A stretch of 58,598 nt of DNA from an uncultured Candidatus Saccharibacteria bacterium (GCA_964615775.1 CAZTQB010000001.1:1-58598), one strand, 5' to 3'. Shown: positions 1 through 11,186, numbered from the stretch's first letter. Notes: generated from the letters alone by a model not told the origin. Program-made: numbers and translations.

Positions 1-133
1 CATCGGCATTTGTGCCAACAGGAAATACTAGGGGTGAGGCTGTATTTATAAGCTCTTTTGATTCAAGAGCGCTACGCAAAGAGCTCTGTTCTTTCAATAG
101 GTCTATCGGTGGCAGTATGGAGGAGTTATTCAT
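1..133 (-). CDS. Partial FtsK/SpoIIIE-domain protein (N-terminus only; runs off window)
   Basis: Not in the ORF track. My translation: MNNSSILPPIDLLKEQSSLRSALESKELINTASPLVFPVGTNAD. This resembles the FtsK LPP.DLL and LR..LES.E....SPL...G motifs that precede the P-loop. TGC-TATACT lies 7 nt upstream of the ATG. Confidence 0.55.
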   Translation of the reverse strand, partial: MNNSSILPPIDLLKEQSSLRSALESKELINTASPLVFPVGTNAD

Positions 134-178
134 ATTGTTTAGTATAGCAAGTATCGCTTAATGATTTTCGGTATACAG

Positions 179-233
179 CCATCCTAGTTTTACTAGGATG
201 GGACTTCGACTTTTCTTCCAGAAAAATCGAAGT
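179..233 (-). terminator. Two tandem hairpins downstream of the cargo operon
   Basis: CCATCCTAGT/ACTAGGATGG (179-201) and ACTTCGA..TCGAAGT (203-233) lie just past the stop at 236; U-tracts are weak. Confidence 0.45.
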
Positions 234-235
234 GA

Positions 236-550
236 TTAAAAACCTAGCCAGTAGCTTTCGGTATCGTCAGGGATGTTTTTATACTCTATGAACTTCTCGC
301 AGTCTTCCTGCTTTGCGCTGCGCTCAAAGATAAAGTAATCACTCTTAATATCTCCTGTTTTACCGCGTTGAACTCGTGCCTCACAAATCAAGTTCTTCTC
401 ATCTGTTTCGGCTTCTTTGCTCAGCTCACTCGCTACCTTGTCTTTATAGTATTGAGAGGTGTAATAATAGCCTCCGTAAGCACCACCAGCCAGTGCAGCA
501 ATAATAAAGGCGACGAGTACATATTTATTGATAGATACGGTATTTTTCAT
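236..550 (-). CDS. Hypothetical protein with N-terminal membrane anchor
   Basis: 104 aa with a hydrophobic N-terminal segment; last gene of a tightly packed minus-strand operon. Confidence 0.75.
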   Translation of the reverse strand: MKNTVSINKYVLVAFIIAALAGGAYGGYYYTSQYYKDKVASELSKEAETDEKNLICEARVQRGKTGDIKSDYFIFERSAKQEDCEKFIEYKNIPDDTESYWLGF

Positions 551-552
551 AG

Positions 553-927
553 TTAATAACTCGGAACAGGATTCTCTCTACAATCGAAATTACTTTTAAT
601 GTCCTGTTGATAGTATGCATCCAAGGATGCAGATGATTTAAGACCACTCCACGTACTGCTAGGCATGCCACAATAATGATAATAGGTACTGCCAAGCTTG
701 ATGACCAAATACTCGTTCACACTGTCATACCAAGCACCTTTTACAGTTGAGTCTGACTTGTCGAGTGGCTCAAAATTGCTAGCTGAAATATTTACTTTAT
801 CATCGCGGTATTTAACATTTACATAGCCAGAGCCAGGGGATGCAAAGATCGCATATAGTATAACAACACCTATTAGTATCGCGAGTCCGATATATACCCA
901 TGAATAGTTTTCTTTATGCTGTGTCAT
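553..927 (-). CDS. Membrane-anchored KTSC-domain protein
   Basis: N-terminal TM; C-terminal WYD...L.I....YYHYCGMP..TW..L..S.S...YY...IK..F pattern typical of KTSC; ATGA overlap with the upstream gene. Confidence 0.65.
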   Translation of the reverse strand: MTQHKENYSWVYIGLAILIGVVILYAIFASPGSGYVNVKYRDDKVNISASNFEPLDKSDSTVKGAWYDSVNEYLVIKLGSTYYHYCGMPSSTWSGLKSSASLDAYYQQDIKSNFDCRENPVPSY

Positions 928-1769
928 TTCGTTAGCGTAGCCTTTACGCGCTTAGAAACAAGGAAGTATGGGATCCAGATACAAGAAAAGATAATGGCTC
1001 GACCAATAGACCCACCTTGCTTACTCATCTCGCTATCGACATTTATGTTGTACTCGCTAAAGATTGAGCTTGCCCATGCGTAATCTACGACACCAAGAAC
1101 TATATTTGCCACCAAGAATGCGATAGCAACATGTTTGGCGAGTCGTTTATGCTGCGCAAGGAGCACAATTAACCAAATTGCTACAGCGGCTAGTGCTGCG
1201 AACTGGAAGACTTCAAACCATAGAGCAGGCATCATGGCCGCAACGAACCCGGGAGCTTGTGACCTTACAGATTCAATCTCGTTGAATGCGGATGGGTACG
1301 TAAAGATTTGAAAGATATTATAAATGATGGCAATACCTAGCCCGACAATAAAGTATGCCAGCCAGCCTTCAAGTCCGATCTTCTGATCGCGTCGTTGCTC
1401 TTTTGTCATTTTGTCGGGATTAGTGGTTTTTGTAAGGTAGGAATCTCCAGGCGACAATTGATTTTTTAGCTTTTCTGCTTTCGCATAAGTTTCGCCACGC
1501 ATATCTATCGCTTGATTGATAAAATCTAGCGCATCATCGTCATGTCCATTGAAGTAATGAACTAACGCCTGTAACTCATAAAGTTTATATCTCGCCGTAC
1601 CGATTTCGTCACTATATTGGTACTTTTCAGCTAAGGAATCGAGTCGTTTTTGAACTAGAGCCAGTAGTGCTTTATCTTTTTCGCGAGATGTTGCATCTTT
1701 GAGGTTTGCCTCGACGACTTTAATTTGTTCTATATAAGTCTGGCGAGTTTTTGAGTGTGGAAGCTGCAT
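924..1769 (-). CDS. Membrane protein: helical/TPR-like N-terminus plus DUF2569-like TM domain
   Basis: GLEGWL at the start and WIPYFLVSKRVKATL at the end of the TM domain match the DUF2569 pattern; start overlaps the upstream stop (TAATG). Confidence 0.65.
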   Translation of the reverse strand: MQLPHSKTRQTYIEQIKVVEANLKDATSREKDKALLALVQKRLDSLAEKYQYSDEIGTARYKLYELQALVHYFNGHDDDALDFINQAIDMRGETYAKAEKLKNQLSPGDSYLTKTTNPDKMTKEQRRDQKIGLEGWLAYFIVGLGIAIIYNIFQIFTYPSAFNEIESVRSQAPGFVAAMMPALWFEVFQFAALAAVAIWLIVLLAQHKRLAKHVAIAFLVANIVLGVVDYAWASSIFSEYNINVDSEMSKQGGSIGRAIIFSCIWIPYFLVSKRVKATLTK

Positions 1770-2161
1770 TATTCTAAATCTCCCCAGTCTCGCGAATCTT
1801 TATCTTTTGTAGCAGTCGCAGTACTCCCTTGAGGATTGCGACGCTTATTGAGAATGATAATACCGAAGATGAGGCATGGCACAAAAGCTAGCATGCTTCC
1901 GGCACCGAGTAGGAACAGTACGACATTCGAGATAGTCCGAAACATTGACGCATTGTCACTGCCGTTCAGTTCCTGTCCGCCTACACCTTGCGCTATGCTT
2001 GCACCATCCGAAAGACTTGGTGATGAAGTATCAGACACGGGCGCGGAGCCTGCAAGAATAAAGTTGATAATTGCATACAAAATAATTGATAATATGAGTC
2101 CGAGTGCTGGCCCGATAATCAAAAATATTGGTAGTTTCAGGCTTTGTTTTTGTTGCGTCAT
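1769..2161 (-). CDS. Two-TM hypothetical protein ending in RDWGDLE
   Basis: Start moved to 2161, where the ATG overlaps the upstream TAA (TAATG); two hydrophobic segments. Confidence 0.75.
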   Translation of the reverse strand: MTQQKQSLKLPIFLIIGPALGLILSIILYAIINFILAGSAPVSDTSSPSLSDGASIAQGVGGQELNGSDNASMFRTISNVVLFLLGAGSMLAFVPCLIFGIIILNKRRNPQGSTATATKDKDSRDWGDLE

Positions 2162-2829
2162 TACTCTAGGTCTCCCCATGTTCGTTTAGTGTCATCTGGC
2201 TGCTCGATATCTATAACTTCATCGTGTCGGGTTGCGTGTTTTTCGGCACGAGTAAGAGCATATGTAAACAGTAGTTGAATAACCAATGAGATGATGAGGA
2301 TAGTAACAAGCACAGGGAATGCTTGCCCGAGAGTCATGCCGAATATACCAATACAGATCATAAGTGCGACAACACCGAGTGCAAGGAAAAATGTTGTCAT
2401 ACCTGTCGAGGTATTGTCCTGTTCTTTAGATGCCATGTATTGCCATGGCGCAAGCACAACAGCATAGAGCCATAGGAGACTTGCCCAAAGCGGTGCGGAT
2501 GGCGAGCTTAACGCAATATCTGCGATGTAGTATGTCGAGACAGCGATAAGCCCATACGTATACGCAATACCCAGCAAGCCAAAGATGAAAAACAATACAT
2601 ATTTACGCTTTTCGGCAAAAGCAGCCGCTGGTGCGGCAAAGAGCAAGCTAGGCATAAGGAATAGACCAATAATCATCGCGCCAAACATCATATAGAGTAA
2701 GCCACCGATAAATAGTGACCACTCACCAGCGATCATTAGCCATATACCGCCAACAATTCCACCGAGTACGTTCAGTATGAGAATAGGAGCGCTTAGCGCT
2801 GTAATGAGACCGGTAAAGAATCGTTCCAT
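2161..2829 (-). CDS. Multi-pass membrane protein ending in RTWGDLE
   Basis: 222 aa, about six hydrophobic segments, in operon context. Confidence 0.8.
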   Translation of the reverse strand: MERFFTGLITALSAPILILNVLGGIVGGIWLMIAGEWSLFIGGLLYMMFGAMIIGLFLMPSLLFAAPAAAFAEKRKYVLFFIFGLLGIAYTYGLIAVSTYYIADIALSSPSAPLWASLLWLYAVVLAPWQYMASKEQDNTSTGMTTFFLALGVVALMICIGIFGMTLGQAFPVLVTILIISLVIQLLFTYALTRAEKHATRHDEVIDIEQPDDTKRTWGDLE

Positions 2830-2837
2830 ATTAACAC

Positions 2838-3377
2838 CTACGAACCCTGGCAGTATGTTGAACCGTTCTCCAGGAGAATGGTGATTGAGTAAGCACGCTC
2901 AGATGATGCACCATCGCAGTTTTTACCGACTGAATAAACGGCGATATCTGTTGTTGGGTCACCCTCACTAGTGAGAGCTGTAACCTGACCAAGACTAGAG
3001 GTTGAAAGATCGCTTGGAGCTGGAAGCTGTCCGCGATTAGTCGTTTGGAAGTTCAGTACATCAGTAGTCAAAACGGTAACGTCATTTTTACGGGCAGTAT
3101 CGCGCTGGCTCTTCTGTAATGCGGGAAGTGCAGCTTGTACCATCCAAACGATCAGTAAGCTAATAACGATGCCAATGACGCCCGTAACAATACCCGCTAC
3201 TGCCTTTTTGTGACCTTGTTTCTTGAGAGAGTTCACGCCAAGGATAATAGCAATAACACCTAAAGGAATGCCAATATACCATACGATAGAAGCAACGATT
3301 GCCAAAATGCCAAGTACTAATGCCGCCGTTGAGTGTCCTTGACCACCCGTCTGTTCTGTTTTGCTCGCTTCTGACAT
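2838..3377 (-). CDS. DUF4190-like TM hairpin fused to a type IV pilin-like domain
   Basis: N-terminal A.LVLGILAI...G..LG.IAIILG pattern, then ALPALQKSQRDTARKNDV..L......Q..NRGQLP, which resembles the alpha-1 helix of Saccharibacteria pilins. GAGG SD upstream. Confidence 0.65.
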   Translation of the reverse strand: MSEASKTEQTGGQGHSTAALVLGILAIVASIVWYIGIPLGVIAIILGVNSLKKQGHKKAVAGIVTGVIGIVISLLIVWMVQAALPALQKSQRDTARKNDVTVLTTDVLNFQTTNRGQLPAPSDLSTSSLGQVTALTSEGDPTTDIAVYSVGKNCDGASSERAYSITILLENGSTYCQGS

Positions 3378-3406
3378 GTCGTATGTTCCTCACTTTCTCT
3401 AAAATT

Positions 3407-3535
3407 AAAAAACGACAACCATTCTAGGTTGTCTAGGCCAAACAACAAGAGTCAAGCTCCAGTGTCTTTCGAATGGTTGCCGCTTTCAAAGCTTGACCAA
3501 GATCAAAAGACCTTTCGTGTTGTTTAACCTAGACA
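3407..3535 (-). ncRNA. Structured 5' leader / C4-like antisense-attenuator RNA with intrinsic terminator
   Basis: Nested stems 3430-3437/3528-3535, 3440-3446/3519-3525 and 3451-3458/3490-3497. Terminator hairpin 3414-3433 followed by a U-tract (3407-3412). Internal 3471-3481 is complementary to 3414-3424. TATAAT on the minus strand at 3542-3547. Confidence 0.6.
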
Positions 3536-3616
3536 TTCCCGATTATAGCTGTTAGTGGTCAGTTTTACTACATGCATCAGCTATTTATCAGTAAATATTT
3601 TTTTCGCGTTGCTTCC

Positions 3617-3709
3617 TTACCCGTTCTGGTTGATTGTAGGTAGAATGACGGTAATAATCTCGTCAGTTTCTTCTTGAGTTAATGGTCGTCTCTTCTTTTT
3701 TGAACTCAT
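3617..3709 (-). CDS. Possible 30-aa peptide MSSKKKRRPLTQEETDEIITVILPTINQNG
   Basis: ATG overlaps the TGA of the EVE-like gene (ATGA); below the ORF-track cutoff. Confidence 0.35.
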   Translation of the reverse strand: MSSKKKRRPLTQEETDEIITVILPTINQNG

Positions 3710-4128
3710 ACGATGAAATCCTCGATATATTCAATCAAGGCAGGATTAGTATCGAGTGAATTGGCCAGCCCTTGCGGTGCTGTAAATCCACGCTGCTTCA
3801 ACTCTTTGAGAGGGATAACCCCGTCCTCAGCTTCACCTAAAAGCTTCAAGCGAAAAATTCGTGGAAAGCTTTCGAGGTCTTTAGGGTAAACACCCCCAGC
3901 CCAGAATCGACGGTCATCAATTTTAGTGGCCATCGTAATATCGTCAGCCACCACTTCCAACTTATAAACTATTCCACCTCGCCCACGGGGAGGGATAACT
4001 TCGTATACATACACGAAATCACCAACCTCAAACTTATTGTTCGTTACCCAGTCCATTTGGCCATTAGTTTGAAGCGATGCCTCGGCATTGTAGGTTGCTG
4101 GATTTGATGCGATTACCCATGTACTCAT
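3706..4128 (-). CDS. Stand-alone EVE/PUA-like domain protein
   Basis: N-terminal TWVIASNP..Y...........W......EVGD.VYVY pattern of EVE domains. Confidence 0.6.
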   Translation of the reverse strand: MSTWVIASNPATYNAEASLQTNGQMDWVTNNKFEVGDFVYVYEVIPPRGRGGIVYKLEVVADDITMATKIDDRRFWAGGVYPKDLESFPRIFRLKLLGEAEDGVIPLKELKQRGFTAPQGLANSLDTNPALIEYIEDFIV

Positions 4129-4135
4129 AGTTTTT

Positions 4136-5065
4136 TTACCTCGCTAGTTGCAATGCACTACGGTTAATGTATTTATTGCACTCAGACACGATATACGAAG
4201 TGAGAAGACGATCAGAAGCCTCGGTGCAGTAATAAGAGAATAGCTCTGTTGGCTGGAGGGTCTGCTTCTCTGTGTATGATTTTACACGCTCTTGCATTAC
4301 AGGGTCTTTACCATAGATAGAGATAAGGTCACTTGTGAGCTTCGTTTTCGTGCCGTCATCAAGCGCCTTGAACCATATATGATGCAGGTACTCATGAGCA
4401 ACGACAACATCGAGAACATTGCCAGTCGTTCCTTGTTTTACGGTCAGTACGCCGTATGACCAGTTGCCAGCTGTGTCGATAAATGCTTGGTACTCACCGG
4501 CCTGTCCGTCAAGAACTTTGTTGTCATAACCAGCAACGAACTTTGTTTCAACCCACTTCATGTCAGATGCGCCGACCTTAGCTAAGGATGCGTTGATTGT
4601 TGCATCAGACTGTAGGTCTGGCTTGAACAGTGTATTGGTCTGTTGCACATTGATTCCTGCGTTAGCAGTAGATACTTGCGGATCAGGAATTACTACCGTG
4701 ACAATCGTGCCGACGATAATGCCAAGCCACATATAGGTACGAAGTACGTTGGCGCTGATCCTATTGAGCGGATTCTTCTTGCGGGACTTGAGCCAGATAA
4801 ACAGATAGCAAACGATAACGAGCACGCCCACATAAATCGACCACAATGCTCGTATATGATAGCCTTGCGGGCTATTCATATTTCCACCATCTACTATGGC
4901 ATTCCCAACGGTAATGGCAATAATAAACGCAACGAAGCCGATGATGAATGGCCAGCCTATGATCCAAAGGATAGCCGAAAGTACCCTGCGCTTACGGGAA
5001 TAAGTCTTTAGCTTATGTTCTGTCTTCTCGATTTTTTCAGTCTTCTCTTTTACTTCGGTCGTCAT
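4136..5065 (-). CDS. Membrane-anchored zincin-like metallopeptidase
   Basis: Three N-terminal TMs; AHEYLH (HExxH) with downstream TELFSY. Start set at 5065 (TATAAT 6 nt upstream). Confidence 0.65.
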   Translation of the reverse strand: MTTEVKEKTEKIEKTEHKLKTYSRKRRVLSAILWIIGWPFIIGFVAFIIAITVGNAIVDGGNMNSPQGYHIRALWSIYVGVLVIVCYLFIWLKSRKKNPLNRISANVLRTYMWLGIIVGTIVTVVIPDPQVSTANAGINVQQTNTLFKPDLQSDATINASLAKVGASDMKWVETKFVAGYDNKVLDGQAGEYQAFIDTAGNWSYGVLTVKQGTTGNVLDVVVAHEYLHHIWFKALDDGTKTKLTSDLISIYGKDPVMQERVKSYTEKQTLQPTELFSYYCTEASDRLLTSYIVSECNKYINRSALQLAR

Positions 5066-5100
5066 GGCTCGATTATACAATAAAAAGTATTATTAATTAA

Positions 5101-5271
5101 TCTCTTCACTTCACGTACTTGTTCATTATACGGGTCGAGCAAACGCATCAAGGTCGTATTCACCCCTGAATACGATTTTCTTTTAATTGATGTATTCAAG
5201 GGGAATCTCCACCTGTGACGCCTTTGCCATGCGACCCCGTCAGATGACTCCGTTACGTAAAGTAAAGGAGA
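5101..5271 (+). promoter_or_regulatory. Long imperfect hairpin 1, Frpo-like ssDNA promoter candidate
   Basis: Arm 5101-5173 is complementary to arm 5192-5271; ATTATA (TATAAT on the minus strand) at 5125-5130 falls opposite a mismatched segment; the hairpin directly precedes the first small gene. Confidence 0.65.
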
Positions 5272-5276
5272 ATATC

Positions 5277-5558
5277 ATGCACGTAGCAGAAGCAACACAA
5301 ACTGTAGCCACCGAGTATAACGGGTGGAGTAATAGAGAGACGTGGTTAGTGAACATGTGGCTCACTAACGACAGATGCTATTACGATGAGCTTTGTGAAA
5401 TCATCAAGAACTTCGATCTTGATGAGCAAGCAGAGGAACTTGAGCGATACGTCCGATTTATCACAGATACCGACAACAGTATCGGTATTGTGGGCGACCT
5501 GCTCAACACTTCTCTCGGTCGAATTGACTGGGTTGAAGTCGTCGCAGCGAACCAGTAG
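5277..5558 (+). CDS. Small phage/MGE-type protein with YNGWSNRETW motif (DUF7249-like)
   Basis: AAGGAG SD at 5265-5270 fixes the start at 5277; the upstream ORF extension runs through the hairpin. Confidence 0.75.
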   Translation: MHVAEATQTVATEYNGWSNRETWLVNMWLTNDRCYYDELCEIIKNFDLDEQAEELERYVRFITDTDNSIGIVGDLLNTSLGRIDWVEVVAANQ

Positions 5559-5563
5559 CGAAA

Positions 5564-5590
5564 TAGTCCCGAGCATGACTAAAACTGCTC
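5564..5590 (+). repeat. Pseudoknot repeat copy 1: TAGTC-CCGAGCAT-GACTA-AAAC-TGCTC
   Basis: S1 TAGTC/GACTA, S2 GAGCA/TGCTC; begins 5 nt after the stop. Confidence 0.85.
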
Positions 5591-5614
5591 AAACTAAGCT
5601 TTAAGGAGGCTGAT

Positions 5615-5812
5615 ATGCGTACAACTGTCATTAGTAAGGAAACAAAAGAACAAATCGAGCGCCATAGGCGGTTCTGGGTGCAAGTCGCAGAACAGCACGA
5701 CTGGTACACCGAGCCTTTCTACATCCAGGTATGGCTTGACGATAAGGGCGATGTAGCCGATAGCGTATCTCACATAGGTATGACATCGGACATCATAATC
5801 CCAAGTCTCTAG
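5615..5812 (+). CDS. Hypothetical 65-aa protein
   Basis: AAGGAGG SD upstream; array context. Confidence 0.8.
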   Translation: MRTTVISKETKEQIERHRRFWVQVAEQHDWYTEPFYIQVWLDDKGDVADSVSHIGMTSDIIIPSL

Positions 5813-5820
5813 CAGATGAC

Positions 5821-5847
5821 CGTCCTGAGCATGACGATAAACTGCTT
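5821..5847 (+). repeat. Pseudoknot repeat copy 2: CGTC-CTGAGCAT-GACG-ATAAAC-TGCTT
   Basis: S1 CGTC/GACG, S2 GAGCA/TGCTT (one G-U); begins 8 nt after the stop. Confidence 0.85.
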
Positions 5848-5886
5848 TTATTGTCATGTTGTACGGAACTGAGTGTGGTCGTGTAA

Positions 5887-6031
5887 GAGGCTTCCTCCCT
5901 CTGTCTTTTCATTATACGGGTGAACCACAAGCCCCAAGGTCGTTCGTCCCTTGGTAAACGTCAAGGGGCGCTCCACCTTGACCCTTGCGGATTCATCCCG
6001 AGCCCTTTTGACAGAGAGGCAGGAAGTCCTC
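5887..6031 (+). promoter_or_regulatory. Long imperfect hairpin 2, Frpo-like ssDNA promoter candidate
   Basis: GAGGCTTCCT..CTCTGTC pairs with GACAGAG..AGGAAGTCCTC. Shares TTCATTATACGGGT, CAAGGTCGT, TCAAGGGG and CTCCACCT with hairpin 1. ATTATA (5911-5916) falls in an internal bubble. Confidence 0.7.
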
Positions 6032-6053
6032 TCGATAAAGCAAGGAGGGTCTT

Positions 6054-6389
6054 ATGGACACCGAAACAATAGCAAACGAAACATCAGCAAAGATTGCTGC
6101 GTTGAATGACGCGGCACGCAGTAATGCTGCGAACTACATGGCGACACGAGGCATCATGTCGCTCGATGAAGTGACTATCAGTGAAATCTTCGTCGCCGTG
6201 CAGGACTTTAGCAAATTCACGGAAGACAACGATCCCTACGGCGAGCATGATTTTGGCTCGTTTACGGTAGCCGGTAACAAAGTCTTTTGGAAGATAGATT
6301 ACTACACACAGGACTTGTCTAGTGGGTGCGATCCGCTAGACCCGGGGTGTAGACGAGTTCTCACTATCATGTTAGCCGAGGAGTACTAG
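6054..6389 (+). CDS. DUF3768-domain protein
   Basis: IAALND..R, F..FTEDNDPYGEHDFG, FWKIDYY and RRVLTIMLAEEY are the DUF3768 pattern. Confidence 0.85.
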   Translation: MDTETIANETSAKIAALNDAARSNAANYMATRGIMSLDEVTISEIFVAVQDFSKFTEDNDPYGEHDFGSFTVAGNKVFWKIDYYTQDLSSGCDPLDPGCRRVLTIMLAEEY

Positions 6390-6403
6390 CTCCTCGGTTT
6401 TTT
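6374..6403 (+). terminator. Intrinsic-terminator-like hairpin with the stop codon in its loop
   Basis: CCGAGGAG-TACTAG-CTCCTCGG followed by TTTTTT. Confidence 0.6.
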
Positions 6404-6432
6404 AGTCCTGGGTAGGACTTATGAAACTGCCC
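6404..6432 (+). repeat. Pseudoknot repeat copy 3: AGTCC-TGGGTA-GGACT-TATGAAAC-TGCCC
   Basis: S1 AGTCC/GGACT, S2 GGGTA/TGCCC (compensatory relative to GAGCA/TGCTC). Confidence 0.8.
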
Positions 6433-6462
6433 GACAAAGTTTAATCCTAAAGGAGTTTAGAT

Positions 6463-6939
6463 ATGCATTACTTAGTACGATTGATAGTTGAAGCTGATAG
6501 CGCTGAAGAAGCGAATAGTCAGGCAGATTCCGTGATGATGGATCTCATCGAATGGAGAGAGTTTGACTGGTATCACACCGAAGCTGACGATAGCCGGTGG
6601 GAAGGTTGCTGGAAACCGATGCGTCTGAGCACCAAGAAAGCGCAAGCTATGGTACAGGATGCGATGCAAGGTCAACTTGCAGAGTTCAAGCAAACAATAG
6701 CGACTATCCGCATTATGCTAGACAGCTATAGTGACGAGCAGATATTTAACGAGGAGTTCCAGCAAGTGGATGGACACTACCTGTCTCGATATCAGTTCAG
6801 TCGAGCGAGCGGCTACCATGCGAATGCGTGCCAGCTTTTCGGTGAGGGTGGAGATTCCATCACGAGCCAGAAGCAGCTTGAATGGTACTTGAAAGATACC
6901 GCTAGATTATGGGTTGTCCAAGTAGACTGCCATAACTAA
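6463..6939 (+). CDS. Hypothetical 158-aa acidic protein
   Basis: AAGGAG SD; array context; no family recognised. Confidence 0.8.
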   Translation: MHYLVRLIVEADSAEEANSQADSVMMDLIEWREFDWYHTEADDSRWEGCWKPMRLSTKKAQAMVQDAMQGQLAEFKQTIATIRIMLDSYSDEQIFNEEFQQVDGHYLSRYQFSRASGYHANACQLFGEGGDSITSQKQLEWYLKDTARLWVVQVDCHN

Positions 6940-6945
6940 GCAGTA

Positions 6946-6972
6946 CGTCCTGAGCATGACGATAAACGGCTC
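6946..6972 (+). repeat. Pseudoknot repeat copy 4: CGTC-CTGAGCAT-GACG-ATAAAC-GGCTC
   Basis: Near-identical to copy 2; S2 GAGC/GCTC. Confidence 0.85.
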
Positions 6973-6998
6973 GATTTTTTTAATTTAAGGAGAATGTT

Positions 6999-7304
6999 AT
7001 GAAGATTAGTGAAAATATCCTACGAGAAGAATATAGCTACCGTGGCGGCGGTTGCGAGCTGGACTTGACTGAGTTTGGCTACGAAGATGAGCTTTTGAGT
7101 GCTTACCAGAATTATCTAGGTGGTGGCATGCTTGGCTCGATTGGCAATAGCTGTACTGTCGAGGATTGGCGGCAAGATGAGAAACTCATTAAGCTAGCAC
7201 ATGAGCTGCGAGAATACTATCAGGATCGGATGTATGAGTTCGAGTGTATCGACGAATATAACGAGATAACTGAGGGGCGACCCATCAGCTATCCAGGGCT
7301 GTAA
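6999..7304 (+). CDS. Hypothetical 101-aa highly acidic protein
   Basis: AAGGAG SD; very rich in E, D and Y. Confidence 0.8.
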   Translation: MKISENILREEYSYRGGGCELDLTEFGYEDELLSAYQNYLGGGMLGSIGNSCTVEDWRQDEKLIKLAHELREYYQDRMYEFECIDEYNEITEGRPISYPGL

Positions 7305-7312
7305 GCAGCCCT

Positions 7313-7339
7313 CATCCTGAGTAAGATGTAAAACTACTC
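7313..7339 (+). repeat. Pseudoknot repeat copy 5: CATC-CTGAGTAA-GATG-TAAAAC-TACTC
   Basis: S1 CATC/GATG and S2 GAGTA/TACTC; both stems show compensatory changes. Confidence 0.85.
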
Positions 7340-7709
7340 ATCAGGAACAGGCACACTGGCCGCACCATGCAACATAGCCCTTTGGGCTAGTTGCATCGTC
7401 CGTCCAGCTCAAGCAGCAGATAACGACACGCTCCATACTTACCCCCTCGGACTATCACATGCGTCCCGCAGTGAAGTCCTCGTGTGCAAGAATGAATCAT
7501 GTCCTGGACGTACCTCTGGTACGACATCGGTTAATAATTAAATGGTTAGTCACCATCAAGCACGACGGGCGGCACGTATTCTCCTCTGGAGAAAACGTAC
7601 ACACCCGACGCACTCGCTGGCAACAAAGGCTCGTGATAGATCAAACAAGCGTGACCATGACACGACGCAAGCTTACGCGTCATCGTCACGCTATCCTCAT
7701 ATCCGTAAA
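7340..7709. other. Hairpin-rich non-coding region, candidate oriT or replication origin
   Basis: Inverted repeats at 7367-7396 (ATGCAAC.TAGCCC/GGGCTAGTTGCAT) and 7648-7692 (AGCGTGAC/GTCACGCT), between the small-gene array and the relaxase-family gene. Confidence 0.4.
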
Positions 7710-8495
7710 CTAATCGAAAAGCGCAGTCTGTTTTTTCGGGTTAAAGGGGGAAGACCAGATATGTGCGGCTGGTTTGTCGAATGCCGTGAGTGCTGAGGCG
7801 AGTATCGGCAGTTCACCCTCATCCATGCCCATGCCCTCTAGCTTCTTGTTTGTGGTATAGAGAAAGCTGAACTTTGCGGCGCTATCTTTTAAGACAAAAC
7901 ATATATGGGGATAGTTATCACCCTCCCAGCTTTCATCTTCGCTATGCGTGATAATTTCATCGAGGCGCTTGCGGACTATATATGGTGGCTTATCATCGGC
8001 AATGACTACAATAGCCTCTTTACCGTCTGGTGTGCGTATGTAGAGGTCTGGACGGTTTTTGGGGAATTGTCGGAAACGGTTGATCTCGGTCTTTGAGAAC
8101 ACGGCCGAGTCTTTAGGCAGGTATTTGATAATAGCCGTGTAGCATTGTATGAGCTTCATGCTATGACTAACGAAATCATCAGTCATTTCATCATTCTTGT
8201 ACAGGGCATGTACAACAGACTCTTTGACATCCATGAGCTTGCGGACGGCCGTAACGCCGCTTTTATTCAGGTAATAATAGGCAGGCTTTCTATCAATACG
8301 GAACTTCGGCTCATAGACTTTTGCCACTAACTTTTTACTAACTAATTGCTCTAATACTTCATAGACACTGACCCTATGAATACCCATAACATCTGCTAAT
8401 AATCCTGCTGATACAAATCGAAACTTGAATAATAACTTTAAGACACGTTGCTGCTGACCTGTTAGTTTTTGACCTTTTACATCTCCATCCATCAC
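7710..8495 (-). CDS. Replication-relaxation family protein (Replic_Relax-like)
   Basis: N-terminal wHTH (LT..QQRVLKLLFKFRFVS..LLA), YYL...G, conserved H (FVSHS) and RPDLY. Confidence 0.75.
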   Translation of the reverse strand: MMDGDVKGQKLTGQQQRVLKLLFKFRFVSAGLLADVMGIHRVSVYEVLEQLVSKKLVAKVYEPKFRIDRKPAYYYLNKSGVTAVRKLMDVKESVVHALYKNDEMTDDFVSHSMKLIQCYTAIIKYLPKDSAVFSKTEINRFRQFPKNRPDLYIRTPDGKEAIVVIADDKPPYIVRKRLDEIITHSEDESWEGDNYPHICFVLKDSAAKFSFLYTTNKKLEGMGMDEGELPILASALTAFDKPAAHIWSSPFNPKKQTALFD

Positions 8496-8711
8496 TACTT
8501 CTCTCTCCTATACGTAGTATATATAAAGGGAGAGTAAATGTATAGCTTCTGTATCTGTTAGTAAATACCTATTTACCTGCTATGCACAGTAGGTAAATTA
8601 TACATCAAGATATTGGGTAATTAGTATTGCTTTTTATTTTAATTAGTAATACTATTTATATAGAGGTTGTACATTAATAATTCGGCTAGTTACAGGTAAA
8701 AAGGAGGGGGT

Positions 8712-8864
8712 ATGATTGACAGAGAATTACTCGAAAAAGAAGCAATGGCGGAAGTGTGTGCGTGCTGGTATTACGACCTAGCGGACACGCTTTATGAGAC
8801 ACCAGACAGCGACTTACAGGTTATCGTTAGCCATTCACATAAATGTGAGACTTGTGGCCATTAA
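8712..8864 (+). CDS. Unannotated 50-aa Cys/His-rich protein
   Basis: AAGGAGG SD at 8701-8707; translation MIDRELLEKEAMAEVCACWYYDLADTLYETPDSDLQVIVSHSHKCETCGH. Confidence 0.65.
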   Translation: MIDRELLEKEAMAEVCACWYYDLADTLYETPDSDLQVIVSHSHKCETCGH

Positions 8865-8892
8865 ATAGCATTACATGTTAAAATAAGGACAT

Positions 8893-9096
8893 ATGTCCAG
8901 AAAGATAGTCAGTATGCAAATTCGTGTCACAGACGACCTGCGCGAACGAGCAAAGGTTGTTGCAAAGAAAAATGGGCTTACGTTAAGTGAGCTTATACTT
9001 CAACTGCTGGCAAGCACTGGAGACAAGCAGCTCAAAGAGCTAGCTAAAAAAGAACTCGATGAGCGCCCAAAGCCAGGACGACCCTGGGATAAATAA
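8893..9096 (+). CDS. Ribbon-helix-helix (CopG/Arc-like) DNA-binding protein
   Basis: Beta strand SMQIRV followed by two helices (DDLRERAKVVAKK, TLSELILQLL). Confidence 0.75.
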   Translation: MSRKIVSMQIRVTDDLRERAKVVAKKNGLTLSELILQLLASTGDKQLKELAKKELDERPKPGRPWDK

Positions 9097-9169
9097 AACT
9101 ATTATCTAGCCGAATTGTTAAGACGTACCAGCCTCGGAACGTCTTTTTTAACGTATTACGGAGGGTAAT

Positions 9170-9394
9170 ATGGATCGCAACAGTACAAACAATTCGCAGG
9201 AAGTCGCCGCAGGCTTCTACTCTCCGAGTGAGGAGCAGATTGTATTGCTGCAATCTATATTGCAGAAAGAATCACATGAATCAGTTTCGCTCAAAGAAGC
9301 GCAGGAGGTGGGCATACAGCTCGTGTCACTCTACGAGTGTCTGGCAAGGGATAGGACGCCCCCTATTGGAGTAAGAGGAAATGATGAATCCTGA
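9170..9394 (+). CDS. Small protein overlapping the recombinase start; putative recombination directionality factor
   Basis: GGAGG SD; coupled to the recombinase. The RDF role is inferred from position only. Confidence 0.55.
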   Translation: MDRNSTNNSQEVAAGFYSPSEEQIVLLQSILQKESHESVSLKEAQEVGIQLVSLYECLARDRTPPIGVRGNDES

Positions 9395-10880
9395 TGAAAT
9401 AGGCGTTATTCTCGCTCGTGTCTCAACTAAGGGGCAGGAAGATGAGGGTTATTCGCTTGAGGCTCAGGTTAAAAATCTGAGGATGTATTGTACGAATACG
9501 CGAATCAATCCGATTAAAGTCTTCAAGATTGCTGAGTCCGCATCAAAGACTGAGCAGCGCAAGATATTCAAAGAAGCCATGCAGTTTGTGGAGAAAAAAC
9601 ACGTTAAGAACCTCATTGTCGAAAAGGTAGACCGCCATGTGCGCAATCTGCATGATGCGGTCGAGACGCATGACTGGCTCACTAAAGACGAGACGAGAAA
9701 AGTACACTTCGTTAAAGATGCAATTGTTCTACATAAAAACTCTCGATCTCAAGAGTGGCTTAACTGGGGTATGCGTGTCGTTCTTGCTAAGAACTACATC
9801 GATAACCTACGTGAAGAAGCCATGAAAGGATGGGCCGAAAAACTAGCGCAAGGCTGGATGCCAGCACCACCACCCCCAGGCTATATGACCGTTGTTCGCG
9901 ATGGTAAGCGTATTCACGACTTCAACCCCGAAACCTACAAGTCTATGCAGCGAATTTTTCAGCTCATGCTTGAACCTCAGTACACCATAGAAACGATCCG
10001 TCATAAAATGACAGAGTTTGGGCTGGTGACCGGTAAAGGCAGACCATTCTCCAAGAGCCATGCACATAGAATACTGACAAATCCATTCTACATAGGAACC
10101 ATTCGCTTTAATGGCAACGAATACCCAGGTAAGCAGCCACACCTGATATCCGAAGAGCTGTTTAATGCAGTACAAGCCAAAATCTCACGCAAACGACCTG
10201 CGAAGTATCGCAAGCACAACCCATTACTCAAGGGTGTAATGATCTGTGAACACTGTGGCAAGAACATTACGTGGCAGCTCCAGAAAGGCCGATTGTACGG
10301 CTCATGTCAGCGTAAGTTAGAGGCTTGCAAGAAACAGAGCTTTGTCCGCGAAGATGCCGTCCTAGAGCTTATCCAAGGCAAGCTGGACGAACTTATCTGC
10401 CCATCTCCTGAGGTTATAACGTGGCTGACGACGTTACTGCATCAAGACTTCCAACTGTCAGTCAACAACGTCGAAGAGGCCCAGAAAGCCCTTGACGAGC
10501 GAATTGAGCGTATCAAGCGGATGGATGACATGCTGTATGACGATAAGCTGGCCGGACTTATTTCTGGCGAGCGCTATCAGAGTAAGCATGATTCATTCAT
10601 TAGTGAAATTAATGATCTGCAAAAGCAGAAAGGAGGCATAAGCCAAGAATACGAAACTAAGTACATGAATGGGATATCCGAGATAGAGCTGTCACAGGAC
10701 GCTAAACGGCTATTCGCAGACGAAAATACAAGCAGTGACGACAAACGAATAATTTTAACCAAACTATTCGAGAAGATCAGCCTAAAAGACAATTCCGTAT
10801 CTGTTACGTACACCAAACTGACACAGGCAATAGCTCGAAATAGCGGTTTAAGTAAGGAGATTTTGGGATATGCAAAATAA
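9381..10880 (+). CDS. Large serine recombinase (integrase)
   Basis: Catalytic ARVST..Q...GYSLEAQ, EKVDR..R, recombinase domain, zinc ribbon (CEHCG...C..C) and coiled coil. Confidence 0.95.
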   Translation: MMNPDEIGVILARVSTKGQEDEGYSLEAQVKNLRMYCTNTRINPIKVFKIAESASKTEQRKIFKEAMQFVEKKHVKNLIVEKVDRHVRNLHDAVETHDWLTKDETRKVHFVKDAIVLHKNSRSQEWLNWGMRVVLAKNYIDNLREEAMKGWAEKLAQGWMPAPPPPGYMTVVRDGKRIHDFNPETYKSMQRIFQLMLEPQYTIETIRHKMTEFGLVTGKGRPFSKSHAHRILTNPFYIGTIRFNGNEYPGKQPHLISEELFNAVQAKISRKRPAKYRKHNPLLKGVMICEHCGKNITWQLQKGRLYGSCQRKLEACKKQSFVREDAVLELIQGKLDELICPSPEVITWLTTLLHQDFQLSVNNVEEAQKALDERIERIKRMDDMLYDDKLAGLISGERYQSKHDSFISEINDLQKQKGGISQEYETKYMNGISEIELSQDAKRLFADENTSSDDKRIILTKLFEKISLKDNSVSVTYTKLTQAIARNSGLSKEILGYAK

Positions 10881-10897
10881 CGATAACCAAACCAACC

Positions 10898-10921
10898 AAA
10901 AAGACCCCCATAACAGGGGTC
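10898..10921 (-). terminator. Intrinsic terminator downstream of tRNA-Gln
   Basis: Minus strand GACCCC-TGTTATG-GGGGTC followed by TTTTT. Confidence 0.7.
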
Positions 10922-10962
10922 AAAATGGATTCGAGCATATCTCTCCTGGCTTGTGTTCTATA

Positions 10963-11037
10963 TGGCTGGGAGTGAGGGATTCGAACCCCCGAATGCCAGG
11001 ACCAAAACCTGGTGCCTTACCACTTGGCCAACTCCCA
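10963..11037 (-). tRNA. tRNA-Gln (anticodon UUG)
   Basis: Minus strand TGGGAGT acceptor stem, anticodon arm CCAGG-TTTTGGT-CCTGG, GTTCGAATC T-loop and encoded CCA. Confidence 0.97.
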
Positions 11038-11186
11038 TTGGCAAAAATCATTTTATAATAGCAGGGGCTTTTGGTATTTTGTATTTAAATGACTTTATTG
11101 AAGTATTATACGACATCTTAATTGATGTGTAAAACTACTATAAAACTTTCTTTTACCGTAGCTAAAAAGAATGCTAGACTAGGGTT

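Follow-up and report, generated by a model that had tools for sequence, protein, structure and literature searches.

Gene organization and integration site

The window, the whole stretch of 58,598 nucleotides analysed here from an uncultured Candidatus Saccharibacteria bacterium, has a host part with a G+C content of 0.31-0.46 (mostly 0.35-0.42), and positions 1-11000 stand apart at 0.44-0.49. The features of this distinct part are listed in Table 1. From right to left, positions 5101-10962 run from the 3' end of tRNA-Gln through the serine recombinase gene, small ORFs, the ribbon-helix-helix (RHH) gene, the Replic_Relax (RR) gene and a hairpin cluster to five small genes, all oriented toward that cluster. 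An earlier note made from the sequence alone had listed the tRNA, integrase, RHH protein, RR protein, hairpin-rich gap and five small genes, and each was found where it had been placed. The 50-aa Cys-rich ORF, to which the Pfam search assigned no family, is absent from that list.

Table 1. Features of the element and its integration site, right to left.
Feature	Position	Strand	Evidence and remarks
tRNA-Gln(UUG)	10963-11037	-	ARAGORN; Rfam 63.7 bits; intact, CCA encoded; integration target
Element right end, attR arm	10881-10962		Minus-strand hairpin and T-run
Large serine recombinase (integrase), 499 aa	9381-10880	+	Resolvase 6e-18, Recombinase 1e-16, Zn_ribbon_recom
74-aa ORF, candidate recombination directionality factor	9170-9394	+	Position only; overlaps integrase start
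Ribbon-helix-helix protein	8893-9096	+	RHH_10 5.1e-6; weak NikA-like 0.004; Arc-like PHROG
Cys-rich small protein, 50 aa	8712-8864	+	ORF kept in 17 related loci
Ultra-conserved divergent intergenic region	8496-8711		Candidate oriT and operators
Replic_Relax (MOBC-type) protein, putative relaxase	7710-8495	-	PF13814, 27.8 bits vs cut-off 25.3
Conserved hairpin cluster, 405 nt	7305-7709	- (relaxase-sense strand)	Candidate sso, possibly part of oriT
101-aa ORF, no family	6999-7304	+	Cad transporter in its place in some copies
DUF7995 protein, 158 aa	6463-6939	+	Pfam tag of identical product
DUF3768 protein, 111 aa	6054-6389	+	Pfam 1.6e-28
Frpo-like single-strand promoter motif, copy 2	5886-6056	-	Before DUF3768 gene; fold z = -5.2
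65-aa ORF	5615-5812	+	Called as gene in L034-L037
DUF7249 protein, 93 aa from ATG at 5277	5277-5558	+	Pfam 7.8e-11; PHROG 871, function unknown
Frpo-like single-strand promoter motif, copy 1	5103-5279	-	Before DUF7249 gene; HMM E = 1.3e-25
140-aa protein (weak EVE match) and 314-aa HExxH membrane protein	3706-5080	-	Conserved element genes
Module junction	3629		Copies differ to left, share sequence to right
Variable cargo, six small membrane proteins	236-3377	-	104 aa, KTSC, DUF2569, 136 aa, 222 aa, DUF4190 (Pfam)
FtsK_SpoIIIE-domain gene (282 aa), first 44 codons	1-133	-	Matches N-terminus of L033 FtsK_SpoIIIE protein

The element directly adjoins the CCA end of tRNA-Gln, the junction at 10962/10963 being set by locus L123 and by loose contig ends. 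A terminator-like site at 10921-10903 would terminate the tRNA gene, and a search for an inverted-repeat partner to the right arm found none. The recombinase carries the ARVST catalytic motif and is XisF/CcrB-like. The 74-aa ORF that overlaps its start is kept in 12 related loci and had no family match in domain and homology searches, and the RHH protein is a candidate relaxosome accessory factor or repressor. The five small genes belong to DUF or unknown families; the 65-aa ORF had no matches in family and homology searches, and DUF3768 was found in 21 related loci and on 459 plasmids, 239 of which are predicted to be conjugative.

The FtsK-like gene that had been placed further left is present as its start, read from 133 to 1, with the rest lying beyond the left edge. 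The gene at 4136-5080 was considered as FtsK and rejected, as its 314-aa product is a membrane protein with an HExxH motif. The cargo accompanies the element in L033-L038 (~98% nucleotide identity) and is missing from the L009 copy, in which homology begins at 3629. Left of 3629, three metagenomes as well as L039, L042 and L043 have one and the same foreign sequence, and the genes at 3706-5080 are common to these three loci and L009.

Copies of the element in other hosts

Copies with 97.9-99.8% nucleotide identity were obtained from the window, L001, L002, L007, L009 and L034/35, with unrelated flanks past the tRNA, and these copies occupy tRNA-Gln(CUG) and two distinct tRNA-Gln(UUG) sequences. 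The 26 relatives in Saccharibacteria MAGs adjoin tRNA-Gln, -Trp, -Leu or -Glu, with the tRNA ~2.5 kb from the RR gene in most of them. Because near-identical copies have unrelated host flanks and the 26 relatives lie beside various tRNAs, the element is a mobile integrative element located at a tRNA 3' end, in agreement with the earlier note, and the recurrence of its gene order in the 26 related loci is evidence that this order is not accidental. The contigs of six metagenomes (contigs, not reads) contained no circular joint or attP junction.

In relatives, the left flank continues with the FtsK-like gene and then the T4CP, CHAP, VirB4, PrgI, VirB6 and pilin genes. These form a monoderm-type type IV secretion system (T4SS) operon (pilin, VirB6, PrgI, a 219-aa protein, VirB4, CHAP, VirD4-type T4CP), 2-8 kb past the small-gene array in relatives sharing the element. 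The earlier note had proposed looking in the left flank for transfer genes and attL, with phage structural genes as the opposing outcome. A VirD4-type T4CP, VirB4, CHAP hydrolase, PrgI, VirB6 and VirB2 pilin were recovered from relatives and phage structural genes were not; the recovered flanks and contigs showed no left end (attL).

The Replic_Relax protein and the region upstream of its gene

The Pfam match of the RR protein is marginal (Table 1), and 35 of its 51 homologues match the same family, which CONJscan names as the MOBC relaxase family (PMC5357655); its earlier description as relaxase-type is borne out to that extent. The protein has an N-terminal MarR-like winged helix and a C-terminal alpha/beta domain. 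The AlphaFold model (pLDDT 94.9) gave MarR-like matches in Foldseek when searched whole; the C-terminal domain alone gave nothing significant (best E = 0.11), several PD-(D/E)XK nucleases being among its weak matches. The PF13814 family has been placed in the PD-(D/E)XK fold (PMC3424549). The conserved residues are E137, P149, D150, K176 and H184. No plasmid homologue was found by tblastn with this protein.

Within the non-coding DNA of the element family, conservation is highest in the intergenic region 8496-8711, upstream of the relaxase gene, where mean nucleotide identity across 20 loci was 71% versus 66% in the RR coding sequence, with blocks at least 90% conserved. It contains the inverted repeats CTCTCC..TATATATAC-TACGTATAG..GGAGAG and TTTACCT..AGGTAAA, as well as two ATACTAATTA repeats. 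From these sequence features, 8496-8711 is preferred to the gap as the candidate oriT. Nicking at 7340-7710 with the relaxase gene transferred last, as the earlier note had proposed, is not favoured given this conservation upstream of the relaxase gene. The gap lies at the position of ICEBs1 sso1, so if the order is that of ICEBs1, the relaxase gene would be the first to enter.

Strand-specific structures

The gap is hairpin-rich, with a folding energy of -89.5 kcal/mol (z = -7.2) for its minus strand versus -66.3 kcal/mol (z = -4.0) for the plus strand. The conserved structure has 112 pairs, 47 with compensatory changes, and 0 of 500 shuffles were equally good in the covariation control. Alignment cells were paired at 93.8%, versus 31-43% when the alignment was slid. 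The cluster recurs directly 3' of RR genes whose products are just 23-26% identical. ICEBs1 sso1 has been placed 'immediately downstream of nicK' (PMC4595007), and by analogy the cluster is a candidate single-strand origin (sso).

The second structure, a motif of ~170 nt, carries TTGnnn-N15-TAnnnT on the distal arm of a hairpin, and its -10 falls within an internal loop. In copy 1 this reads TTGATG-N15-TATAAT on the minus strand, which is the strand that folds (-35.3 vs -27.4 kcal/mol). Positions T1, A2 and T6 of the -10 were invariant in 20/20 sequences and the -35 TTG was present in 18/20. The -10 was unpaired in 15/20 and the -35 paired in 19/20. The spacer of 15-16 nt is below the sigma-70 optimum of 17. 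Covariation was seen as 17 pairs with two-sided changes (score 0.215 vs 0.110), and the motif folded better on the minus strand in 18 of the 20 sequences. All HMM matches were on the RR strand and solely within the small-gene array, and inspection of the sequence gave no plausible ordinary plus-strand promoter ahead of the DUF3768 gene. The layout resembles, by analogy, that of an Frpo-type ssDNA promoter. Such promoters had been suggested for the five small genes; the structured motif is present, though twice only, heading two gene groups.

Both covarying structure families thus fold on the window's minus strand, with G-T exceeding A-C (104 vs 14 in the 112 gap pairs, 50 vs 11 in the motif), and this agrees with the minus strand having been proposed as the transferred and template strand.

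Proposed mechanism and alternative explanations

An ICE is the likeliest identity of the element, and we consider it probable that positions 1-10962 are the right-hand part of a Saccharibacteria ICE that continues past the left edge and transfers as ssDNA. The serine recombinase would excise the element, perhaps aided by the 74-aa ORF, after which binding of the RR protein and the RHH protein to 8496-8711, or to the gap, would lead to a nick in the minus strand. Either the nicked strand would be unwound and sent 5' to 3' via the T4SS, or rolling-circle replication would displace it. Synthesis of the complementary strand would be primed at the hairpin cluster 3' of the relaxase gene, acting as a single-strand origin. 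The two hairpins before DUF7249 and DUF3768 would rebuild a promoter only when single-stranded, with the -35 in the stem and the -10 in the distal-arm internal loop facing non-promoter sequence, so the incoming strand would serve as template for the five small genes while still single-stranded. These genes have putative establishment or anti-defence functions, and insertion at a tRNA 3' end by the recombinase would come last. This region would then be the end of an element in a tiny episymbiotic bacterium that serves integration and DNA processing and is 'first-to-enter'. An exchange of ssDNA among Saccharibacteria through their puzzling T4SS is suggested by the strand-specific DNA hairpins of the region.

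In about half of the relatives with long flanks (7/15) no T4CP occurs within 10 kb, and the RR module and integrase are absent within 7-10 kb of most VirB4/T4CP loci examined, so the T4SS may be resident and the element only mobilizable. It would then be an IME, a unit of 5-15 kb (integrase, MOBC relaxase, oriT, leading genes) borrowing a resident chromosomal T4SS that is not part of it. VirB4, which ~80% of Patescibacteria genomes contain, is considered chromosomal (PMC12102498), L008 and L005 share just 5888-10968 with the window, and the streptococcal IME_Class_8 has the same serine integrase and MobC module (PMC5357655). We regard an IME as unlikely, however, since the block that is co-mobile between host contexts extends from the tRNA past the window start and comes at least within ~200 nt of the T4CP gene. 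The T4CP is 99.6% identical in L033, which shares the window's element, and in L009, whose tRNA-side host flank is unrelated to the window's, despite differing cargo between. No tRNA lies close to those VirB4 loci that lack the module, which indicates that the T4SS is not natively beside tRNA-Gln, and the relative orientation of RR and T4CP was constant in 7/8 cases. Of 40 loci centred on VirB4 and 15 kb or longer, a sample biased toward close relatives, 12 contained RR-family genes.

The conserved structures might act as RNA, the gap being a 3' UTR or ncRNA made by read-through of the RR gene and the motifs antisense RNAs or regulatory elements. The strand that folds in the gap is indeed in sense orientation to the RR gene that lies immediately upstream, RNA tolerates G-U pairs well, and the minus-strand TTGnnn-N15-TAnnnT could be an ordinary leftward promoter. 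This is improbable: no Rfam family matched, the folding strand of the motif is antisense to the following gene and ends at that gene's ribosome-binding site, and the whole layout fits the ssDNA elements Frpo (PMC11541004) and sso1 after nicK (PMC4595007). A -10 in an internal loop facing non-complement is needed by a single-strand-only promoter, and its use in RNA is not obvious. It is very unlikely that ssDNA is replicated or packaged in a rolling-circle plasmid-like or filamentous-phage-like manner without conjugation, with the RR protein as initiator and export by the membrane proteins and FtsK-like ATPase. The viral contig collection held no relative, no phage structural families were found in the window (Pfam, PHROG), the membrane-protein block is variable cargo missing from other copies, and the element is linked to an operon with T4CP, VirB4 and pilin genes. 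The Pfam family name 'replication-relaxation', the many small membrane proteins and FtsK-like ATPase of the window copy, and the strand-specific origins and promoters, typical of rolling-circle replicons too (PMC4595007), would suit it, but it overlaps with the ICE model, whose life cycle includes rolling-circle replication after excision. We give slightly less credence still to a non-transferring island in which the small genes are ordinary cargo and the RR protein is a mere transcription factor (a winged helix with an inactive nuclease-like domain). Its structural matches are solely MarR-type regulators, Foldseek gave no confirmation of a C-terminal nuclease fold, and Steczkiewicz et al. predicted the family to be a transcriptional regulator (PMC3424549). 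Against this, E137, D150, K176 and H184 are kept across the 51 homologues down to 23% identity, the neighbouring cis structures are conserved and strand-specific even at 23-26% RR identity, and the element has spread recently among hosts.

Comparison with known systems

The linked operon resembles the Patescibacteria T4SS of the MPF_FATA type described by Quinonero-Coronel et al. 2025, with a VirB2-like pilin, VirB6, PrgI, VirB4, CHAP and T4CP (PMC12102498). That study counted 58 MOBC relaxases in Patescibacteria, with 39 relaxase genes near t4cp; an integrase, tRNA target, oriT and leading region were not reported there. The streptococcal IME_Class_8 likewise combines a serine integrase, a MobC/PF13814 relaxase and VirD4 in a compact module at one end (PMC5357655), but these Firmicutes elements have no T4SS of their own. 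In the present element the integration target is a tRNA 3' end, the leading array carries putative ssDNA promoters, a T4SS operon is linked, and the RR protein resembles no plasmid MOBC protein at the BLAST level.

ICEBs1 of Bacillus subtilis (oriT - nicK relaxase - sso1; monoderm T4SS) is likewise integrated at a tRNA gene and has a strand-specific stem-loop region directly 3' of the relaxase gene, which in ICEBs1 is active only when single-stranded (PMC4595007); the gap is likened to sso1 by position, not by sequence similarity to sso1 or ssoT. Also alike are the MPF_FA/FATA-type T4SS, the VirB4-like ATPase, the CHAP-containing wall hydrolase and a relaxase that probably drives rolling-circle replication too. 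ICEBs1 differs in its MOBT (Rep_trans) relaxase, tyrosine integrase and FtsK-like coupling protein, versus a MOBC-type Replic_Relax protein, large serine recombinase and VirD4-type T4CP here, and Frpo-like promoters are not described in the ICEBs1 literature surveyed.

Frpo/ssi of the F-plasmid leading region is ~330 nt versus ~170 nt here, is unrelated in sequence and belongs to another phylum and relaxase class; the element has its -10 in a conserved internal loop and a 15-16 nt spacer. The genes behind the promoter are DUF7249, DUF3768 and DUF7995 here and ssb, psiB and ardA for Frpo; MOBC elements were left out of the published leading-region survey, in which they lacked anti-defence enrichment (PMC11541004). 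In Frpo a hairpin of the transferred strand rebuilds the -35 and -10, and the downstream genes, oriented toward the origin of transfer, have the T-strand as template (PMC11541004); the same would apply here. Frpo/ssi sites may also prime complementary-strand synthesis.

Integration at a tRNA-Gln gene

The features of the element, for which the earlier note had given the correct order with all five small genes pointing at the non-coding gap, are listed in the table below. The DNA is almost certainly a mobile integrative element seated at tRNA-Gln. Because the tRNA gene lies on the minus strand, its 3' CCA end faces left, and 82 nt separate this end from the large serine recombinase gene. The right junction is exact at 10962/10963: contig L123, which has the same host flank, departs from the window directly left of the encoded CCA and carries different sequence left of an identical tRNA, and the loose ends of other contigs depart at the same position. 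The G+C content was 0.44-0.49 across 1001-11000 (0.40 in the first kilobase) and 0.31-0.46, mostly 0.35-0.42, from 11001 on.

Coordinates of the annotated features of the element and of its tRNA target.
Feature	Position	Strand	Length	Family or remark
DUF7249 gene	5277-5558	+		DUF7249
65-aa ORF	5615-5812	+	65 aa	
DUF3768 gene	6054-6389	+		DUF3768
DUF7995 gene	6463-6939	+		DUF7995
101-aa ORF	6999-7304	+	101 aa	
Non-coding gap	7305-7709	-	405 nt	Hairpin cluster
Replic_Relax protein (RR)	7710-8495	-	261 aa	Replic_Relax
Divergent intergenic region	8496-8711		216 nt	AT-rich
Cys-rich ORF	8712-8864	+	50 aa	Between the conserved intergenic region and the RHH gene
Ribbon-helix-helix (RHH) protein	8893-9096	+		RHH_10; NikA-like match weak
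74-aa ORF	9170-9394	+	74 aa	Overlaps recombinase start; no family match
Large serine recombinase	9381-10880	+	499 aa	Resolvase + Recombinase + Zn_ribbon_recom; ARVST motif
tRNA-Gln(UUG)	10963-11037	-		Only tRNA of the window

The element was found next to several different sets of host genes. Past the tRNA these are HIT, CorA and BipA in the window, an fn3 protein and UvrD in L001, an ABC transporter and Maf in L002, and a fatty-acid desaturase in L034/35. The whole of window 1-11030 is common to L034/35 at 98.3% identity, next to a tRNA-Gln(UUG) of differing sequence, and the target in L001, L002 and L009 is tRNA-Gln(CUG). Left ends at 5888 and 3629 had been considered and were ruled out, because L034/35 carry all of this DNA in another host context. 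An identical RR protein was present on contigs of several metagenomes, their DNA being 97.4-99.7% identical to window 5891-11042; landfill and wastewater samples are among the sources of the element. When a single genome per species was scanned, 26 related loci were recovered, nearly all from Saccharibacteria/Saccharimonadales or Patescibacteria MAGs, and in most related loci RR and a tRNA gene (Gln, Trp, Leu or Glu) are ~2.5 kb apart and flank a serine recombinase.

The recombinase matched Resolvase (E = 6e-18), Recombinase (1e-16) and Zn_ribbon_recom (9.5e-5) in Pfam, and the R-V-S-T catalytic motif was read from its sequence as ARVST at residues 12-16. Related elements (L010-L032) were observed at the 3' ends of tRNA-Trp, tRNA-Leu (GAG), tRNA-Glu and tRNA-Gln, each with an adjoining serine recombinase. 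Those integrases that could be aligned by BLAST were 42-81% identical to that of the window, and the ones beside tRNA-Glu and one tRNA-Leu gave no reportable BLAST match to it. To our knowledge, serine integrases do not usually target the 3' ends of tRNA genes. Between the recombinase and RR, the 50-aa ORF, which the earlier note had not listed, has a CxC...CxxC spacing and is kept in 17 loci; it gave no family match.

No tRNA-fragment direct repeat marking attL was found within the window, which is the expectation for a serine recombinase. An inverted-repeat partner of the right arm, searched for at candidate left ends, gave chance-level matches only. Empty-site flanks (as in L123 and the loose ends) were sought across all recovered loci, and a circular joint or attP among the contigs of six metagenomes (assembler contigs, which drop rare forms); neither search returned a case. 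All contigs with the host HIT gene end inside the tRNA. Contigs from many samples (L119-L126, L001, L003, L006) break inside tRNA-Gln and at ~5955, within the promoter motif described below, a sign that both the att site and the repeated motif are branch points of the assembly graph. Such branching limits what short-read assemblies tell about the ends of the element.

Some further features of the locus were observed. Downstream of tRNA-Gln and inside the element, a G+C-rich hairpin followed by a T-run lies at 10903-10921 (minus strand), so the adjoining tRNA gene seems to take its terminator from the element. Two loci are apparent decayed copies: in L016 (9327-10783) tRNA-Gln adjoins the RR gene directly, with neither integrase nor RHH module and with the coupling-protein and VirB4 genes still downstream, and L030 has a truncated RR and lacks both tRNA and integrase. 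In the host part (11001-58598) the GC skew is positive almost throughout, the cumulative skew rising from 0.2 to 6.4, a pattern that fits one replichore arm of a small genome; the main ORFs listed for 11.2-15.1 kb are on the plus strand.

Small genes and cargo

Among the five small genes, no known anti-defence, SSB or SOS-inhibition families were found; they comprise DUF7249, DUF3768, DUF7995 and two orphans. A DUF3768 gene is carried by 459 plasmids; 52% of these are predicted conjugative, and large ParB-like genes are an example of its neighbours. A literature search under its name returned no paper. DUF7249 matches a PHROG of unassigned function. Pfam and PHROG searches of the element found no phage structural families.

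The cargo was modular and varied among copies. A Cad cadmium transporter takes the place of the 101-aa gene in four loci (L003, L004, L008, L033), and L008 and L018 share a block of MarR, a 517-aa membrane protein, a 98-111-aa HTH-like protein and a 394-783-aa multi-pass membrane protein. Other copies carry an AAA_13 ATPase (L009, 15783-18056), an RVT_1 reverse transcriptase (L033, 13029-14174) or, left of the secretion operon, a defence-like trio of Z1, HATPase_c_3 and DUF4420 (L039, 1645-6696).

Secretion genes beyond the left edge

The earlier note had placed an FtsK-like gene further left and had proposed a search of the left flank for VirB4, coupling-protein genes and attL. The FtsK-like gene exists, with its first 44 codons in the window (133 to 1, minus strand); the gene at 4136-5080, also considered for this role, was ruled out as a membrane HExxH protein. 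Leftward contigs (L033-L038) were recovered with the window protein at 924-1769 as handle. Left of the membrane-protein cargo of the window, the order is a 282-aa FtsK_SpoIIIE protein, a 140-aa protein, RVT_1, a 238-aa protein, an 872-aa VirD4-type coupling protein (T4CP; TrwB_AAD_bind, TraG-D_C), CHAP and VirB4 (AAA_10, P-loop_TraG). In L039 a 219-aa protein, PrgI, a VirB6/TrbL protein and a VirB2-type pilin lie upstream of VirB4; together, L033, L039 and L043 place T4CP, CHAP, VirB4, PrgI, VirB6 and pilin beyond the left edge of the window. The operon is of the same type as the MPF_FATA-like operon of Patescibacteria (PMC12102498). The relatives thus supplied T4CP and VirB4, and attL or another left end was found in none of the recovered loci.

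Whether this operon belongs to the element or to its surroundings was judged from the arrangement of the copies. The secretion genes co-vary with the element. The T4CP is 99.6% identical between L033 and L009 despite differing cargo in between; L033 has the element of the window, and the host flank of L009 on the tRNA side is unrelated to that of the window. The block common to different host contexts extends to within ~200 nt of the T4CP gene, the relative orientation of RR and T4CP is constant in seven of eight cases, and L081 is a compact 15-kb version running from the T4SS operon to tRNA-Gln. Where a VirB4 locus lacks the module, no tRNA lies within 10 kb. An operon lying outside the element is argued for by other observations: about half of the relatives with long flanks have no T4CP within 10 kb, in most VirB4 loci the module is absent within reach, and the search for attL found none. 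With the RR profile, family members were found in 12 of 40 VirB4-centred loci of at least 15 kb, a sample biased toward close relatives, and the published MOBscan count suggests a far lower frequency (PMC12102498). A break in homology at the operon promoter (L039, position 6809), with the defence-like trio on its far side, may be the end of the element or another cargo junction. On balance, we consider it fairly likely that the T4SS is part of the element.

The Replic_Relax protein

RR matched the PF13814 profile marginally (27.8 bits against a cut-off of 25.3, E = 3e-6). The profile was matched by 35 of 51 aligned homologues, at best with E = 1.8e-10, and 543 homologues were found at E ≤ 1e-3 in the representative library. 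PF13814 is the family that CONJscan reports as MOBC, and it accompanies a serine integrase and VirD4 in the streptococcal IME_Class_8 (PMC5357655). It has been placed in the PD-(D/E)XK fold, usually with a fused HTH (PMC3424549).

The AlphaFold model of RR (pLDDT 94.9) predicts a clear MarR-like winged helix in the N-terminal half, which dominates the matches in a whole-model Foldseek search. When the C-terminal alpha/beta domain was modelled alone (pLDDT 95), Foldseek returned no significant PDB neighbour (best E 0.11), the weak matches including EndoMS/NucS and EcoO109I. Residues E137, P149-D150, K176 and H184 are conserved down to 23% identity. A tblastn search of 72,556 plasmids gave no match at E ≤ 1e-3, and a scan of viral contigs found no relatives. 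Because of the marginal profile match, the conserved residues, the weak structural neighbours and the lack of a plasmid match, RR was filed as a peripheral member of the Replic_Relax/MOBC superfamily, with a putative nuclease activity.

A second, very divergent Replic_Relax branch (23-26% identity) was observed 7-9 kb upstream of VirB4 and on the VirB4 strand. Its genes are followed by the hairpin cluster described below in L089, L094, L105, L110 and L117 (positions ~700-2100), and by a DUF7249 gene with the promoter motif in L050/L051 (2353-3666).

The hairpin cluster and the intergenic region

The gap folds more stably on the minus strand (-89.5 kcal/mol, z = -7.2) than on the plus strand (-66.3 kcal/mol, z = -4.0), an asymmetry repeated in those relatives that possess a gap. 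The alignment of nine gap copies has 112 consensus pairs, 47 of which stay paired through changes on both sides. Its cells were paired in 93.8% of cases versus 31-43% with the partners slid, and none of 500 shuffles reached the observed values. G-T wobbles outnumbered A-C (104 versus 14), so the structure belongs to the minus strand of the window, which is the sense strand of RR. The gap HMM also matched directly downstream of RR genes of only 23-26% identity in other T4SS loci.

The gap has the same position relative to the relaxase gene as sso1 of ICEBs1, which lies immediately downstream of it (PMC4595007). Conserved sso signatures, such as RS_B/CS-6 of ssoA or ssoT/ssoU homology, were sought in the gap and none was found. 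The TAGCGT that this search returned is present in the copy of the window, and relatives do not conserve it. At the base of hairpin 2, a TTGAYG...AATAAT pair was considered as a conserved RNA-polymerase promoter and found unsupported, since only some copies contain it.

A ~26-nt repeat, CGTCCTGAGCATGACGATAAAC(T/G)GCT, with a small hairpin GAGCA..TGCTC, was observed at 5566-5584, 5821-5846, 6946-6971 and 7313-7338, each time directly behind the stop codon of a small gene; four of the five genes have a copy. The last one corresponds to helix 11 of the gap alignment, and relatives conserve it. The repeat may serve as a terminator, for processing or for the binding of a protein.

The ~215 nt upstream of the RR start were more conserved than the RR coding sequence (71% versus 66% mean pairwise identity, 20 loci). 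Blocks at least 90% conserved are TATATATAC-TACGTATAG within the inverted repeat CTCTCC..GGAGAG, the inverted repeat TTTACCT..AGGTAAA, and two ATACTAATTA repeats 22 nt apart. The earlier note had put the nick within the gap, with the small-gene array transferred first and the relaxase gene last. The gap is a possible nick region; given the higher conservation of 8496-8711, a nick in the gap is not favoured. The layout that we favour by analogy with ICEBs1 is oriT upstream, then the relaxase gene, the sso and the leading genes. With oriT upstream of RR, a nick near 8500 would start leftward transfer of the minus strand. The first gene to enter would be that of the relaxase, as the sense strand, and it would also be the first to become duplex through priming at the gap.

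A putative promoter motif in the folded minus strand

A ~170-nt motif stands directly upstream of the DUF7249 (5103-5279) and DUF3768 (5886-6056) genes, and 20 distinct copies were aligned from 16 loci and the window. RNAalifold recovered part of the structure from this mixed alignment; the consensus was taken instead from folds of the individual sequences. The minus strand of the motif folds into a long hairpin (z = -5.2), with two-sided changes at 17 pairs (covariation score 0.215 versus 0.110 in shuffles). The minus strand was the better fold in 18 of the 20 copies, and G-T wobbles again exceeded A-C (50 versus 11). HMM matches to the motif were all on the RR strand, one or two per element, and confined to the small-gene array. 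At a permissive threshold Rfam matched the tRNA alone, with nothing for the motif or the gap.

The distal arm, toward the gene, contains TTGnnn (18/20), a spacer of 15-16 nt, which is below the optimum, and TAnnnT (20/20). In the -10 element T1, A2 and T6 are invariant and positions 3-5 vary (TATAAT, TATACT, TACAAT, TACCAT). Minimum-energy folds pair the TTGA in 19 of 20 cases and leave the -10 mostly unpaired in 15 of 20, in an internal loop facing a AAAAGGGCT-type sequence. The basal stem extends into the ribosome-binding site and ATG. In double-stranded DNA the plus strand has AGCCCT at the required -10 position, so the promoter would be reconstituted only in the folded minus strand. The motif thus combines a conserved hairpin on the template strand of the downstream gene with -35 and -10 elements inside that hairpin and oriented to the gene, and the logic of a promoter rebuilt in a folded strand is that of Frpo in the F leading region (PMC11541004).

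Single-strand promoters had been proposed for all five small genes. Two have the motif directly upstream and the other three lack it; the two motif-headed genes probably head two groups, 5277-5812 and 6054-7304. The gap and the motifs are very probably conserved strand-specific structures, and we think it likely that they act as single-stranded DNA, as sso and promoters.

Discussion

The model as a whole, an integrative conjugative element with ssDNA signals, is in our judgment somewhat better supported than not, and judging from sequence and analogy the element would function like an ICE of monoderm bacteria. CPR/Patescibacteria account for a large part of bacterial diversity, and their genomes are tiny. 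The T4SS of Saccharibacteria, and perhaps of many Patescibacteria, has been viewed as mostly co-opted for host interaction, because relaxases seem absent. The VirB4 component is encoded by ~80% of Patescibacteria genomes, the role of the T4SS is debated because relaxases are rarely detected, and MOBC relaxases have been recorded in the group, some near t4cp (PMC12102498). MOBC was left out of the published leading-region analysis (PMC11541004). Our literature search found no description of this element type, its att site or its ssDNA signals.

A more tentative reading, which we hold at somewhat less than even, is that the T4SS of Saccharibacteria, and perhaps of many Patescibacteria, are at least here working conjugation machines of tRNA-targeting ICEs, with highly divergent MOBC/Replic_Relax relaxases missed by standard scans, and with an undescribed ssDNA promoter family whose -10 is pre-melted in an internal loop, and an sso, both serving establishment in the recipient. 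If true, it would give these ultra-small episymbionts a dedicated route of horizontal gene exchange. What makes the element highly interesting is its direct bearing on the question whether the CPR T4SS conjugates. The combination of integrase, divergent MOBC-type protein, conserved cis sites, strand-specific ssDNA signals and linked T4SS makes that question testable, with predictions for the strand that is transferred, the place of the nick and the genes expressed first. The motif offers a compact, covariation-supported model of a promoter that would exist only in single-stranded DNA. The Frpo/leading-region principle, documented so far mainly in proteobacterial plasmids, would be extended to a monoderm-type T4SS, the MOBC class and a new phylum. 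The serine integrases, targeting the 3' ends of four tRNA species, are possible site-specific genetic tools where few exist.

Compared with known systems, the proposed DNA processing is like that of ICEBs1, with the relaxase gene followed by the sso, and the leading region with single-strand promoters is like that of the F plasmid. The element is set apart from both by a very divergent MOBC-type relaxase, by a serine recombinase that targets tRNA 3' ends, and by a promoter motif that constitutes a new sequence family.
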